Assembly: GCA_965197455.1 (NCBI GenBank)
Contig: OZ240208.1
Location: 1,842,153 to 1,906,152 of the forward strand
Length of the DNA: 64,000 nucleotides
DNA from: Phototrophicaceae bacterium
Lineage (GTDB): Bacteria > Chloroflexota > Anaerolineae > Aggregatilineales > Phototrophicaceae
Reading direction: 5' to 3'
Shown here piece after piece: positions 1 to 6,103 of this stretch. Every line of letters begins with the position of its first letter. The stretch's first letter is position 1. A model generated the notes under the pieces. It did no database searches and had not been told where the DNA came from. It saw only the letters and a list, made by a program, of their open reading frames with translations. Made by a program: the position numbers and the translations under genes.

Positions 1-7
1 AGCACCG

Positions 8-3000
8 GTGCCAGAGCCCGCCGCAGATGAGCGCGCTGCCCGTTTTCGCGCCACTGCAGCCGAGGTGCACAGTCTGCGCCAGCGCCAGCGCGCCGGCCTG
101 ATCACGCCGGCACAGCTGCAGGCCGAGCTGCGCCGCCACATGATCGAGGATGAGGGCATCTGGTGGATGCTGGGCGTCGAGACCGACACCTGGTATCGCT
201 ACGACGAGCTCGCCGGAGGCTGGGTCATCGCGCAACCACCGGCCGGAGCGGGCATCCCCGCCGCCCCTGGCGTCGGCATCAGCGAGACGCTGGCGACGCC
301 GGAAGAGAGTCTGTCCCAAACCCTGCCGCCCGGCTTCACGCTCGACGAGGACGAATTGCCGCGCACCGACACGCCGCTTTACGACCAGGACGCGACCATC
401 CCCGGCATGGCGGCCATCAACCAGGCTACCCTGCGCCTGAGCGAAGAAGACGAGCCAGCCGGCGTGGGCGCGACAGTGACGGCCCCGCACCTGGGCGCGC
501 GCCTGGCAGCCCCCGCGAATGTACCGCCGCCGCTTCGGGGCACTGCGCGCGCTATCGCCCGCAACCTCATCCCGCAGCGCCTGTTGCTGGTGGCTATACT
601 GCTCGGCGCGGCCTTTCTGCTGCTCTTCGCGCTGACGACGCTGGTCGTCCTGTTGCGCTACAACAACATCGTCGGACGCTACGGCGCGGAGATCGACGCG
701 CTGGCGCAGGCGCAACCCGGCTTGCAGAGCCTGCGCATCCTCGACGCCGGTGGTGAGCTGCTGGCCGAGATCGACAGTGAAGACGGCCGCCGCGAGCCAC
801 GCCCGCTCGCCGACATCTCGCCCTGGCTGATCGCTGCCGTCGTCAGCGCGCAGGAGCCGCACTTCTACGGCAGTTCTGATTTCAACCTGCCACGTCTCGT
901 CAGCGACCTCTTTGGCAGCGCTCCAGGCGAGCCTGAAACGATTGCGCAGCGCCTGGCCGCGCTGACCATCAACAACGAGGGCGTCGGCGCCGATGCCCAG
1001 GCACGCCACCGCAACATCGTCGCCGCGGAGCTCGCCCGCCGCCACGACCGCAACACCATACTCGAACGCTACCTGACCGAGGTCAGCTTTGGCCCGCGCG
1101 TCTTCGGCGTGCAGGCAGCCGCGGACTTCTGGTTTGGCGTGGACGCGGCTGAGTTGCAGCCGGTGGACGCGGCGCTGCTGGCCAGCATCCTGGTCAACCC
1201 GGAAGTGACGCCGCTGGACAGCAATGCCCGTGATGCGGCCTTCGCCAACGCGGATACCCTGTTGCGCGAACTGGCGAAGCGCAACTGCCTGAACATGCAA
1301 CATCAGTCCGCCCACCCCGATTTCGCGACGCCCTTCTGCGCGCACCGTGAGCAAATCCTCGATGGACAGGGAGGCTTCAGCCCGGCCGTCAACCTGCAGC
1401 GCGCCATGCTCGGCACGCGCAGCTATGCCGCCACGGCGAGCGTATCGCGTTGGCCACACTTCACGGCCTACGTGGTCGAACAGCTGCGCGCGGAGTACGG
1501 CGAGGAGGCCTTCCGCAGCGGCGCAACCGTGCTCACCACGCTCGATCCCTTCGTCCAGCAGACCGCCGCAGACGCCCTGCGCGAGCAGCTGTTCAGCAGC
1601 GGCATCGGCCGCAATGTGCTGACCGGCGCCGTCAGCGTGGTAGACCCGGCCAGCGGCGACCTGCTCGCGCTGGCAGGCGGCGACGGCGACCCGGCTGTAA
1701 CGCTCGGCTTCCAGGCGCCGGGCGCAGCCATCATGCCCCTGCTCTACGCCGCCGCGCTGGAGGGCGTGGGCGACCGCAACAGCAATGGTCAGCTGGACTA
1801 CAACGAATATCTGACCGCGGCTTCCATCCTGTGGGACGTGTCGGGCCAGGCGCCCAACCCCTTCTTCCCGCCCCTGCCCCATGGCAATCTGACGCGCGGC
1901 CCCGTCTCCGTGCGCAGCGCGCTGGCTAACGCGCTCAACATCCCCGCCGCCAGGGTGTGGGACTTCGTGACGCAGGAGCGCTTCCTCGAAACCGCCGACC
2001 GCCTCGGCCTGCGCAGTTTCCGCAGCAGTAGCGGCGCCGGGCCGGGCGTCAGCGCCGGTGAGACCGGCGTGCGTTTAATGGAGCTGATGCAGGCCTACAG
2101 CACCCTCGCCAATTTCGGACGCTTCCAGCCCCTGCGCGCCATCCACGCGGTGACGGCGGCGGATGGCAGCGAACTGCCGCGCAAGACAGTGCCTGGCGCG
2201 GGGGACGTGCTGCAGCCGGGCGTGGCCCTGCTGCTCGGCAACCTCATGGCGGAAGACAGCGCACGCAACATCATCGGCGCGGGCAGCCCCCTCACCCTGC
2301 CGGGCCTGGAGGGCGCCATCGCCGCCATCGCGAACACCAACATTGGCGCGCGTGACCTGTGGGCCATGGGCTACAGCAACAATGCGGTGGTGGGCGTTTG
2401 GCTGGGCCGCGAGGACGACCAGCCCACCAACTCCAGCGGCCTGCAGGAGGCCGCGCCGGTCTTCAGACGCGTCATGCAGAACGTATTAATGGGGCGGCCA
2501 CAACCGACTCGCTTCGCCGGCCCGCAGGCCACGCTGGCCGCAGCGCCGGTCTGTAGTTTCACCGGCGCGGGGCCGGGCCCGGTCTGCCCCGGCGGCGCGC
2601 GCAGCGAGCTCTTCGTGCCGGGCTATCCGCCGCCACCGCCTGAGCTGGGCGTCATCCTCACCCGCACTGTCGACAGCTGGAGCGGCCTGCTGGCCAACGA
2701 GTTCTGCCTGGACAACCGACGCGACCAGACCTACCTGCGCCTGGAACCGGAGGATCCACAGGTGCTCGCCTGGCTGGGCTCACCGGCGGGCCAGGGCTTC
2801 ATGAAAGCGGCCGGGTTGACGGGACTGCCGAACAAAACCGTGCCGACCGTCTCCTGCGATGTATCCACGCGCCAGCCCGCCCTGACGCTGCTGAACCCGC
2901 CGCACAACTCCGTCGTGCAGGGCAGCATCCTCGTCACCGGCAGCGTCGCCGCGCAAAACCTGGAACGCTTCGATCTCACGCTCTTCACGCCCCAGGGCAC

Positions 3001-3187
3001 GCTCATCCAGCAGCTGGGCAGCTGGGAACAGCAACGCCCCAACCTCGAAACCCTGGTGCAGTGGAACACGGCCGTGGTGCCGGACGGCCAATACACGCTG
3101 CGCCTGACCGCCCTTGCCGTCGGCGGCGGTTACGCGCAGCGTGAAGCCTTCATCGTCATCAGCAACAGCGCGGTGGCCGGCGGCTGA
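8..3187 (+). CDS. Class A penicillin-binding-protein-like protein (GT51-like plus transpeptidase-like folds) with an N-terminal cytoplasmic extension of about 190 aa and a long C-terminal extension; catalytic motifs look degenerate
   Basis: 1059-aa ORF starting at GTG 8. The frame is open to the window edge, so the true start may lie upstream. One TM segment (LLLVAILLGAAFLLLFALTTLVVLL). GT51-like stretch: ETIAQRLA, RNTILERYLTEVSFGPRVFGVQAAADFWFG, AALLASILVNP. Transpeptidase-like stretch: VVDPASGDLLALAGG, GFQAPGAAIMPLLYAAALE, SVRSALANALNIPA, DLWAMGYSNNAVVGVWLG. Confidence 0.8.
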   Translation: MPEPAADERAARFRATAAEVHSLRQRQRAGLITPAQLQAELRRHMIEDEGIWWMLGVETDTWYRYDELAGGWVIAQPPAGAGIPAAPGVGISETLATPEESLSQTLPPGFTLDEDELPRTDTPLYDQDATIPGMAAINQATLRLSEEDEPAGVGATVTAPHLGARLAAPANVPPPLRGTARAIARNLIPQRLLLVAILLGAAFLLLFALTTLVVLLRYNNIVGRYGAEIDALAQAQPGLQSLRILDAGGELLAEIDSEDGRREPRPLADISPWLIAAVVSAQEPHFYGSSDFNLPRLVSDLFGSAPGEPETIAQRLAALTINNEGVGADAQARHRNIVAAELARRHDRNTILERYLTEVSFGPRVFGVQAAADFWFGVDAAELQPVDAALLASILVNPEVTPLDSNARDAAFANADTLLRELAKRNCLNMQHQSAHPDFATPFCAHREQILDGQGGFSPAVNLQRAMLGTRSYAATASVSRWPHFTAYVVEQLRAEYGEEAFRSGATVLTTLDPFVQQTAADALREQLFSSGIGRNVLTGAVSVVDPASGDLLALAGGDGDPAVTLGFQAPGAAIMPLLYAAALEGVGDRNSNGQLDYNEYLTAASILWDVSGQAPNPFFPPLPHGNLTRGPVSVRSALANALNIPAARVWDFVTQERFLETADRLGLRSFRSSSGAGPGVSAGETGVRLMELMQAYSTLANFGRFQPLRAIHAVTAADGSELPRKTVPGAGDVLQPGVALLLGNLMAEDSARNIIGAGSPLTLPGLEGAIAAIANTNIGARDLWAMGYSNNAVVGVWLGREDDQPTNSSGLQEAAPVFRRVMQNVLMGRPQPTRFAGPQATLAAAPVCSFTGAGPGPVCPGGARSELFVPGYPPPPPELGVILTRTVDSWSGLLANEFCLDNRRDQTYLRLEPEDPQVLAWLGSPAGQGFMKAAGLTGLPNKTVPTVSCDVSTRQPALTLLNPPHNSVVQGSILVTGSVAAQNLERFDLTLFTPQGTLIQQLGSWEQQRPNLETLVQWNTAVVPDGQYTLRLTALAVGGGYAQREAFIVISNSAVAGG

Positions 3188-4137: not shown

Positions 4138-5964
4138 TCAGTCCAGGGCCTTGACGATGACCAGATAATTTAGCGGTAGCTCGCCGGCGTGGCCGCGCGC
4201 CCGGTTGCCGCCCAGCACATGCTCGCCGGGTTCACAAACCTTGCTGTAGAGTTTCAGCGCGCGCGGACTGCGCCACTCGTCGCGCAGCTCGATGCGCTCC
4301 CGGTCCAGTTGCCAGCTGCGCAGCCAGCGCGGCCGCTCCAGCACTCCGCTGTCACTGGCAACGTAGAGGCGAGCGCGCCGGGTGATGCGCAGGCGCAGAT
4401 AGTCTTCGTCGCGATTGTCGCGGTCGGCGGCGGACAGGCGCAGGGCGGGCAGTCCGCTCAGTTCGGCCGGCATGCGGTCGATGGCGAAACTGTCCTCGAG
4501 GTAGGCTGGCTCGCCTGCGCGCAGTGCATAGCGTTCACAGGTGTTGCCGCTGCTGACCGATGCGCTTTCCAGGATGACGGTGCCCGGCGTTTCATAGCGG
4601 ATGGCGCAGGGCGGCAGCGGACGCTCGGCCGTGCTGGCAATGACGGCCATGCCGCCCACCACCGAAACCAGCGGCTCCAGCTCGGTCAGGCGTTCCGCGC
4701 CGAAGCGCCGCTCCAGCATCTCCACGAAGGCCGGCACCGCCGAGGAACCGCCGGTGCGTAGCACGACGTCAATGTCCGCGGGCTGCAGGCCGGCATCCGC
4801 CACCACCTGCTGCAGACCCTCGTCCACGGCGGCCAGCTCGCGCGCGATCATACGCTCGAAACGCTCGCGCGTGATGTGCTCGCGGATCTGGATCGGCCCG
4901 TGCTCAAAGACCAGGGTGGCGTCCGGCTCGTCGGAAAGCTGGCGCTTGGTCTGCTCAATGGTGCGGAAGAGCTGGTAGCCCAGGTTGCGTGTGACCAGAG
5001 CTTCCAGCGCCTTCAGCGCCTGGGGGTTGCTGCTGCCATGCTGAAACTCGCGGATGCGCTCCAGGTTGTGTGGCCGCGAGAGGTCCGACATCGTTTGCCA
5101 GCTGGTCAGCATCTCCAGCCAGTCCGGGGGAAACAGGCGCCCGTCGCGGTCGCTTGCGCCGCGTCCGAAATGGCGGGTCAGGAAGCGCATGAGGGCGCGG
5201 TCGAGGTCATCGCCGCCGACCAGCACGCCACGGTTGGCGAGGATTTCCGGCGGCTGTGCGCCGCCCACGCGCGCCAGGGTGAGGTCCAGCGTGCCGCCGC
5301 CGAAATCGAAGACCAGGCTGGTATTGCGTGTTTCACTGCGGACATGGTGCAGCCAGGTGACGGCCAACGGCTCGGTCGCGAATCGAATGTCATTAAAGCC
5401 GGCCATCCAGGCGGCCGTGTACAGGATCTCCTCCGCCCGGGCGTCAACGCGCTCATCTTCCGCGAAGCGCACCGGACGCCCGATCACCACTTCCTCGCAG
5501 TCCGCGTCGAAGTGCTCGCGCGCGCAGTCGCGCAAGGCGCTCAGCAGCAGACAGATGAGCTGGTCGATGGTGTGGTAGCGTTCGAAGATGCGCGTGCCCG
5601 CGTACTCCGGGTTGCGCAGAATAGTCTTGATGGACTGCAGCAGGCGACCGTGCGCGGCCACATCGACCAGCGCCGCCAACTCCTGATCGTAGCGGATGGC
5701 ATCCGCGTCGCGCCCGGCCACGATGATTTCGGTCGAGCCGACGACCCGGCGCCGCCAGCGCACCGGGCGCCCGGTGTCATGTTCCAGGTAGGCGAAGGCG
5801 GCCTCGATGCCGACGGTGCTGGTTTGCTGGCGGTCGATGTAAATCAGCGAGGGCAGCACCCAGGGGTTCTCGTTGCCCGGATTGGTGCGCACGGTGATGA
5901 AGCGTCCGTCTTCGTAGAAGGCGATGGCCGAGTTGGTGGTGCCGAAGTCAATTCCCAGGCGCAT
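4138..5964 (-). CDS. Hsp70-family (YegD-like) actin-fold ATPase with a non-canonical C-terminal domain of about 160 aa
   Basis: Start set at ATG 5964 (MRLGIDFGTTNS), preceded by AGGGAG. Hsp70 nucleotide-binding motifs are present: DFGTTNS, DFGGGTLD, GGSSAVP. The C-terminal part does not resemble the DnaK substrate-binding or lid domains. Confidence 0.8.
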   Translation of the reverse strand: MRLGIDFGTTNSAIAFYEDGRFITVRTNPGNENPWVLPSLIYIDRQQTSTVGIEAAFAYLEHDTGRPVRWRRRVVGSTEIIVAGRDADAIRYDQELAALVDVAAHGRLLQSIKTILRNPEYAGTRIFERYHTIDQLICLLLSALRDCAREHFDADCEEVVIGRPVRFAEDERVDARAEEILYTAAWMAGFNDIRFATEPLAVTWLHHVRSETRNTSLVFDFGGGTLDLTLARVGGAQPPEILANRGVLVGGDDLDRALMRFLTRHFGRGASDRDGRLFPPDWLEMLTSWQTMSDLSRPHNLERIREFQHGSSNPQALKALEALVTRNLGYQLFRTIEQTKRQLSDEPDATLVFEHGPIQIREHITRERFERMIARELAAVDEGLQQVVADAGLQPADIDVVLRTGGSSAVPAFVEMLERRFGAERLTELEPLVSVVGGMAVIASTAERPLPPCAIRYETPGTVILESASVSSGNTCERYALRAGEPAYLEDSFAIDRMPAELSGLPALRLSAADRDNRDEDYLRLRITRRARLYVASDSGVLERPRWLRSWQLDRERIELRDEWRSPRALKLYSKVCEPGEHVLGGNRARGHAGELPLNYLVIVKALD

Positions 5965-6103
5965 GATGCTCCCTGATCGCGGACACGGGGCGGGCAATAC
6001 TAGCAGCGCAGGCAGGAACCTGATAGCGTGATCCCCGCTCTTCACCTGGACAATCCGGCAGTATCCGTTACTATGAAAGCATTCGCGAATTCACGACGGT
6101 CTG

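Follow-up and report, generated by a model that had tools for sequence, protein, structure and literature searches.

Can a bacterium keep a class A penicillin-binding protein (PBP) once neither of its active sites retains the residues needed for catalysis, and if so, for what purpose? Class A PBPs are classic antibiotic targets and are mostly discussed only as enzymes. The question is raised by a gene at the left edge of a 64,000-nucleotide stretch of DNA (the window; C1:1842153-1906152) from a Phototrophicaceae bacterium (Chloroflexota; GenBank assembly GCA_965197455.1, contig OZ240208.1), whose genome is a single contig (C1) of 2.77 Mb. The gene encodes a class A PBP-like protein in which both active sites, those of the glycosyltransferase (GT, family GT51) and of the transpeptidase (TP), have lost essential residues, and the whole protein has been retained by selection. 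We think it likely that this protein, hereafter the dead class A PBP, is the genus-specific orthologue of a long class A PBP of the Anaerolineae that has turned into a pseudoenzyme and now acts as a non-catalytic transmembrane scaffold or regulator.

The reading frame fills window positions 2-3187 and is still open at the left edge. Its true start is an ATG at window position -244 (genome C1:1841908), 251 nt upstream of the window, which gives a full-length protein of 1143 aa, of which residues 83-1143 are covered by the window. The initial annotation had begun the gene at position 8; we rejected the GTG there, which is internal, because the frame runs back to the upstream ATG and the close orthologues (P0002 to P0012, public data; 1143-1149 aa) have the same N-terminal beginning. 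The cytoplasmic N-terminus, previously put at about 190 aa, comes to approximately 275 aa with the transmembrane anchor at window 581-655, while the C-terminal extension, previously put at about 250 aa, was recovered at a length of about 240 aa. The layout of the gene is as follows.

1-3187, plus strand: coding sequence of the dead class A PBP, residues 83-1143, stop codon at 3185-3187 (frame open at the edge; N-termini of the orthologues)
17-250, plus strand: family-specific cytoplasmic module of two helices and a four-stranded beta-meander, with the pattern WWM.G...W...W (alignment; AF2 model)
251-580, plus strand: low-complexity linker on the cytoplasmic side, with abundant Pro, Ala, Glu and Asp, the least constrained part (composition)
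581-655, plus strand: single transmembrane anchor of 25 hydrophobic residues (read from the sequence)
728-1234, plus strand: GT51-like domain in which neither catalytic glutamate nor the RK lipid II-binding pair survives (PF00912; count of conserved columns)
851-865, plus strand: GT51 motif 1 (EDxxF), reading QEPHF (three alignments)
998-1015, plus strand: GT51 motif 3 (RKxxE), reading QARHRN (three alignments)
1523-2476, plus strand: TP-like domain predicted to keep its fold and cleft-lining blocks, with all three catalytic motifs replaced (PF00905 below its cut-off; TIGR02074)
1724-1735, plus strand: SxxK position, reading AAIM (three alignments)
1931-1939, plus strand: SxN position, reading ALN, with the Ser gone and the Asn retained (three alignments)
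2327-2335, plus strand: KTG position, reading IAN (three alignments)
2477-2881, plus strand: C-terminal subdomain containing four invariant Cys (alignment; AF2 mean pLDDT 87.3)
2882-3184, plus strand: predicted C-terminal Ig-like or FN3-like beta-sandwich (AF2 pLDDT 95-97; Foldseek)

Arg-rich residues precede the anchor, and the topology predicted from this arrangement places the N-terminus inside and the enzyme-derived body outside the cell. The four invariant cysteines of the C-terminal subdomain (C30, C41, C81 and C131 in the numbering of the subdomain alignment) would be compatible with an extracytoplasmic location.

The catalytic positions were read from three independent alignments: a phmmer alignment against solved chains of PBP1a, PBP1b, PBP2 and PBP4, a MAFFT alignment with 118 relatives, and a hidden Markov model (HMM) built solely from 70 relatives that carry every motif. 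The last of these aligned with the dead class A PBP over HMM positions 2-579 of 579 (421 bits), and its posterior probability reached the highest level for GT motif 1 and all three TP motifs, four of the five in total. The three alignments agree in placing non-catalytic residues at all five catalytic positions. In full-length numbering, the first GT51 glutamate is replaced by Gln366 and the adjoining aspartate by Glu367. The RKxxE block reads Q415-A-R-H-R-N420, in which the second glutamate corresponds to Arg419 or Asn420, depending on a one-residue gap (posterior ~0.6). SxxK has become A657-A-I-M660, SxN has become A726-L-N728, and KTG has become I858-A-N860. The coordinates that the initial annotation had assigned to QEPHF (851-865), AAIM (1724-1735), ALN (1931-1939) and IANTNIG (2327-2347) proved exact, and the RKxxE glutamate that it had failed to find is indeed missing. 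Its claim that SxN was replaced holds for the serine, lost as A726, and not for the asparagine, which is kept as N728.

These alignments also bear on the possibility that the catalytic residues are present and merely displaced by an alignment artefact. What speaks for this is confined to the RKxxE region, which alone has a lower posterior and a one-residue gap; whichever way that gap is placed, however, the block contains no acidic residue. At the other four motifs the posterior is at its top level, the flanking blocks match residue for residue (PG..I.P..Y, ALAN..N.PA and.RDLW..GY), and there is no Ser-x-x-Lys or Lys-Thr/Ser-Gly near the motif positions. We regard an artefact as close to excluded, with a vanishingly small probability.

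The domains that surround the replaced motifs can still be recognised. PF00912 (GT51) matches with 77.6 bits against a cut-off of 27 (82.4 bits in the genome-wide search), while PF00905 (transpeptidase) reaches 15 bits and remains under its cut-off of 22.1. The PBP1A-family model TIGR02074 spans model positions 1-533 of 535 and scores 182.9 bits against a cut-off of 508.75. Because this model aligns end to end at a third of its cut-off score, the fold appears to be complete and only the signature degraded. Together with the equally continuous match to the HMM of active relatives, this upholds the class A PBP scaffold recognised by the initial annotation. Assignment to related families was not supported: the PBP1C (PbpC) model TIGR02073 gave 177.8 bits against a cut-off of 494.2, PF06832 (BiPBP_C) had no match even at E up to 10 with the C-terminal part alone, and the MtgA model TIGR02070 gave 47.1 bits against a cut-off of 182.65, with a TP-like domain present.

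To describe the degradation by position, we looked at the alignment columns conserved to 90% or more in the 70 active relatives. In the clade of the dead class A PBP, the GT domain keeps 17 of 30 such columns; substitutions in the other 13 include E to Q366, R to Q415, K to A416 and E to R419. The TP domain keeps 33 of 47, with S657A, K660M, S726A, K858I, T859A and G860N among the changes. The columns that are kept are mostly Gly, Pro, Ala and Trp plus the blocks flanking the motifs; the losses are concentrated in catalytic and substrate-binding columns and include all catalytic residues, the RKxxE Arg-Lys pair and some of GxSTITQQ. Judged by these columns, both sites appear to have been dismantled while the folds stayed, the GT site being more degraded than the TP cleft.

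The remnants of the GT site invite the suggestion that Glu367 or other residues have taken over and that the protein retains glycan polymerisation or has acquired another activity. Glu367 offers an acidic side chain one position past the lost glutamate and is conserved in 12 of 12 orthologues, and parts of GT motif 2 (T-I-x-Q) and motif 4 (ILExYL) remain. In E. coli PBP1b, however, where E233Q and S510A are the standard inactivating changes, E233Q kills the enzyme despite a neighbouring aspartate (PMC6456298). The second glutamate and the Arg-Lys pair of RKxxE have also gone from the dead class A PBP, its PF00912 score of 82 bits compares with approximately 190 bits in an intact paralogue, and its TP site has neither a nucleophile nor a general base. 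Residual or new catalysis is, in our view, quite improbable. The two PBP1b changes (PMC6456298) are of the same kinds and at the same two positions as those seen here, where EDxxF has Gln for Glu and SxxK has Ala for Ser. The PBP1b double variant is man-made and fails to complement, whereas the dead class A PBP is natural, fixed in its genus and under selection. Unlike that variant, it has also lost the second glutamate, the SxxK lysine, the SxN serine and KTG; it lacks the UB2H domain of PBP1b, with which it shares little sequence identity (E 5e-16).

All 11 other genomes of the genus carry the gene at 73-84% identity and without internal stops, one copy being cut by a contig end. The substitutions are common to 12 of 12 orthologues and the replaced motifs are near-identical among them: the Q-E pair of QEPHF is the same in all 12, and the RKxxE block begins QARHR in 11 and QLRHR in one. 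The pairwise ratio of non-synonymous to synonymous substitution rates (dN/dS, Nei-Gojobori) is 0.14-0.31 for the whole protein, 0.13-0.28 for the GT-like domain, 0.09-0.30 for the TP-like domain, 0.08-0.29 for the cytoplasmic module and 0.02-0.37 for the Ig-like tail, with higher values (0.23-0.63) in the low-complexity linker. As a control, we took the intact class A PBP from the same genomes and the same genome pairs, for which dN/dS is 0.20-0.38 overall and 0.11-0.27 in the GT-TP core; the core of the dead protein gives 0.11-0.28. Because these values match in the same genome pairs, the dead protein is held as tightly as the working one. It is under purifying selection as strong as that on its intact paralogue and is not decaying, which is what a retained non-catalytic role predicts. 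Absence of the catalytic residues is here combined with purifying selection, and the protein is a pseudoenzyme by both marks. A sponge metatranscriptome run, the only RNA run in which the stretch occurred, yielded two contigs at 99-100% identity, covering window 1725-1898 and 1931-2128 in the TP-like part, a weak hint that the gene is transcribed.

The same comparison addresses the proposal that the gene is a relic nearing loss, left behind neutrally as the genome of a symbiont lineage shrank. The genomes of the genus (G000-G011) are small, at 2.8-3.3 Mb against 3.8-6 Mb in sister genera, the genus lacks a class A PBP of approximately 850 aa that is kept by all other genera sampled in the order, and the dead proteins sit on a long stem branch (0.94) in the family tree. 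A neutral leftover is nevertheless hard to reconcile with a frame that is intact in 11 of 11 genomes at the identities given above, with dN/dS well below 1 in every domain and equal to that of the intact paralogue, and with replaced motifs that are themselves fixed. We consider this proposal very improbable and close to excluded.

Where did the protein come from? Orthologous loci are found in metagenome-assembled genomes of Phototrophicaceae or Anaerolineae, and they belong to a "long" class A PBP family of the Anaerolineae whose members have approximately 1200-1500 aa and form about 80 clusters (50% identity) at E <1e-95. Their architecture comprises the cytoplasmic module, a transmembrane anchor, GT51, a Cys-containing linker, the TP domain, a Cys-rich subdomain and the Ig-like tail. 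Every sampled genome of the order has one member, and the dead class A PBP is the only one of its genus. The active members of the family, such as P0013 (1422 aa), share the architecture of the dead protein and are 34-41% identical to it over the whole length; they keep the GT glutamate of motif 1, RKxxE, SxxK, SxN and KTG, whereas the dead protein does not, and its cytoplasmic region is shorter, with a total of 1143 aa against approximately 1400-1480 aa. In databases, the active proteins are named "transglycosylase domain-containing protein" or "membrane peptidoglycan carboxypeptidase".

Loss of catalytic residues has recurred in this family. Among the 117 aligned members and outgroups, 46 are without the Ser or Lys of SxxK and 35 without at least one GT glutamate; 34 of these 35 are TP-dead too. 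Twelve are TP-dead with an intact GT site, and a single one is GT-dead with an intact TP site. On trees of the GT-TP core from which the motif columns had been removed, the dead class A PBP clade is nested in the long family with starred support in both FastTree and an IQ-TREE quick search; its neighbours are further TP-dead members, with active ones such as P0013 close by. At least nine changes of the TP state are needed on the FastTree topology and 11 on that of the IQ-TREE quick search, and by this reconstruction the transpeptidase site was lost at least nine times within the long family. A single clade uniting all TP-dead members was rejected by the approximately unbiased (AU) test (log-likelihood difference 646, p 6e-66). 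Loss of the transpeptidase first and of the glycosyltransferase later is a pattern only: for glutamate loss after TP loss, an independent-pairs sign test had a median p of 0.25, with too few pairs. The pattern agrees with the known requirement of class A transpeptidation for ongoing glycan synthesis (PMC6456298). Of 20 loci from other genera, all eight from other families of the order are active, while the twelve from the subject's own family divide into seven active and five TP-dead. The type in which all five positions are gone is confined to the subject's genus.

If the dead class A PBP does not build wall, other enzymes of the same cell should be able to do so. The survey of other synthases proposed by the initial annotation found one intact class A PBP (C1:2135397-2138471; every motif present, PF00912 ~190 bits), four class B PBPs, three of which have SxxK and KTG, and three SEDS genes, and judging by these motifs the wall chemistry can be done without the dead protein. 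The genome holds three GT51 genes, namely the intact one, the dead long PBP and a PBP1C-like paralogue, as placed on the tree, at C1:2750869-2754096 (minus strand); all other sampled genera of the order have four or five. This paralogue is a second dead class A PBP, with RADPDF at EDxxF (Ala at the first Glu), PLLQ at SxxK, GLL at SxN and VSA at KTG, and it keeps the second GT glutamate. Its PF00912 score is low throughout the subject's family and one other family and high elsewhere; since the low score extends across the family, its decay is older. The names "transglycosylase domain-containing protein" and "penicillin-binding protein" accordingly overstate the capacity for wall synthesis in these genomes; in the present one, a single one of the three GT51 genes looks workable.

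The fourth class B PBP, at C1:1503792-1505609 (minus strand), is degenerate and lies approximately 2.6 kb from a SEDS gene at C1:1500109-1501158. It matches PF00905 with 220.9 bits and keeps SxN, but at SxxK the sequence is PGSLMQ, with Gln for Lys, and at KTG it is AGMAGTA, with Met for Lys and Ala for Thr. Near-identical sequence occurs in sponge metagenome and metatranscriptome runs, which suggests that the organism is sponge-associated; the genus as a whole looks like a genome-reduced sponge associate.

What could the protein do without catalysis? We propose that it would work as a membrane-spanning scaffold or regulator. Its cytoplasmic module may still bind a partner that the active ancestors bound, and its extracellular body may still stand in the wall-building machinery where a class A PBP would. 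There it could contact the remaining synthases (the intact class A PBP together with the SEDS/class B PBP pairs) or, via the TP-like cleft, wall that has not been cross-linked, and in this way position or tune synthesis by other enzymes. The absence of both activities from a protein that selection maintains, in a family where such loss has recurred, argues for a structural or regulatory job that belongs to the protein body itself. It is possible, and we advance this more tentatively than the scaffold or regulator role, that the class A PBP body has a function independent of both activities, and that this function has been isolated naturally here in the genus's only long copy.

The cytoplasmic module offers a handle for finding the partner, as it is specific to the family. 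It occurs once in the genome, and a search of longer proteins found it only on GT51 proteins, on both active and dead members of the long family. In its alignment L, R, W, W, M, G, W and W are invariant, and identity to members from other genera is 30-52%. The AF2 model has two helices and a four-stranded meander with a mean pLDDT of 90.1. Pfam searches with the N-terminal 200 aa and the C-terminal 235 aa alone gave no match at E up to 10, and the best score for the N-terminal 100 aa in the ESM Atlas was 0.79, below the useful range. With the module model, no Foldseek match reached E 0.001, the only rows being single Kelch-blade-like ones with E >0.5, and VIA-align (wide) gave a best Z of 5.5 (YkuJ), inside the tool's stated noise range, with no convincing match in the PDB.

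The module also figures in an alternative in which the protein is a receptor: its TP-like cleft, free of a nucleophile, would bind stem peptides or beta-lactam-like molecules non-covalently and signal to the cytoplasmic side, making it a sensor of the wall or its precursors. In its favour, the blocks that line the cleft survive except for the catalytic residues (33 of 47 conserved columns), SxN still has its Asn, and the module is strongly constrained. In addition, a 374-aa kinase-like gene (C1:1840669-1841793, minus strand; L022:10517-11641) lies upstream and is transcribed divergently from the same 114-bp intergenic region. It matches Pkinase with 32.7 bits, has an atypical catalytic loop (DHKLEH) and DFN in the DFG region, and at 54-62% identity across the order is more conserved than the dead class A PBP. 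Yet no known signalling domain was found on the cytoplasmic side, by Pfam match or by fold match, and the same module is carried by active enzymes of the family and is not specific to sensing. Nor does the kinase-like gene stay linked outside two genera: of the five genera checked, it adjoins the long class A PBP in only one besides the subject's (G017), and elsewhere it lies on other contigs or far away. A functional link to the kinase-like gene was dropped, since the adjacency is found only in the subject's genus and G017. We consider a sensor unlikely, though not as improbable as residual catalysis.

For the scaffold or regulator that we favour, several points have to be set on the other side. 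The loss of 13 of 30 conserved GT positions means that binding of lipid II or glycan is possibly gone too. The neighbourhood gives no help, the other neighbours being unrelated. The absolute dN/dS of ~0.25 is moderate and the synonymous rate may be underestimated at 68% G+C, for which the intact paralogue serves as the control. The RNA evidence consists of two short contigs, and their library may contain DNA as well. The initial annotation had read the gene as a pseudo-PBP with a scaffolding or regulatory role. The first part came through every check that it had proposed, namely the profile alignment, the comparison of orthologues and the survey of other synthases. As to the second part, the purifying selection fits the proposed role, and the role itself is one that we infer from conservation alone.

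Other enzyme-derived wall proteins that have regulatory roles and act without catalysis of their own provide partial parallels. C. difficile PBP3 promotes septum synthesis non-catalytically, but it is a class B protein with its catalytic residues kept (PMC12154710). The degenerate LytM factors EnvC and NlpD are non-catalytic wall proteins as well (PMC8416486), but derive from hydrolases. None of the three is a class A PBP with both sites dead. A literature search that was incomplete turned up no published account of the long family or of any class A PBP that is dead in nature. What we report as new is the long family and the cytoplasmic module that it carries, the reconstruction of at least nine independent losses within it, the selection control against an intact paralogue, and the replacement, at the level of a genus, of an active orthologue by a fully dead one.

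If a role independent of catalysis is confirmed, the family would represent at least nine independent natural separation-of-function alleles for class A PBP roles beyond wall synthesis, which could help to find the cytoplasmic partner that steers class A PBPs. The family further provides a graded natural series, from fully active members through those in which only the TP site is dead to those in which both sites are dead.

The C-terminal tail is, according to its model, a generic Ig-like sandwich. Its Foldseek matches, at E 1e-3 to 3e-5, are Ig-like and CBM-like modules, among them the Ig-like domains of LdtMt2.

Gene order around the dead class A PBP is conserved within the genus. Beyond the kinase-like gene adjoins a MOSC-domain gene. 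Two plus-strand open reading frames in this upstream region (L022 10006-10527 and 10625-11680) look conserved and were discarded as wrong-frame, the real genes being the minus-strand MOSC and kinase-like genes. Downstream, both on the minus strand, lie a gene for a sugar-phosphate isomerase-like TIM-barrel protein and one for an Hsp70-fold protein. The latter (window 4138-6045, minus strand) matches PF00012 with 100.9 bits over residues 30-295 and has a weak MreB-like match; it is without the usual substrate-binding part of DnaK, and its position is conserved across the genus.

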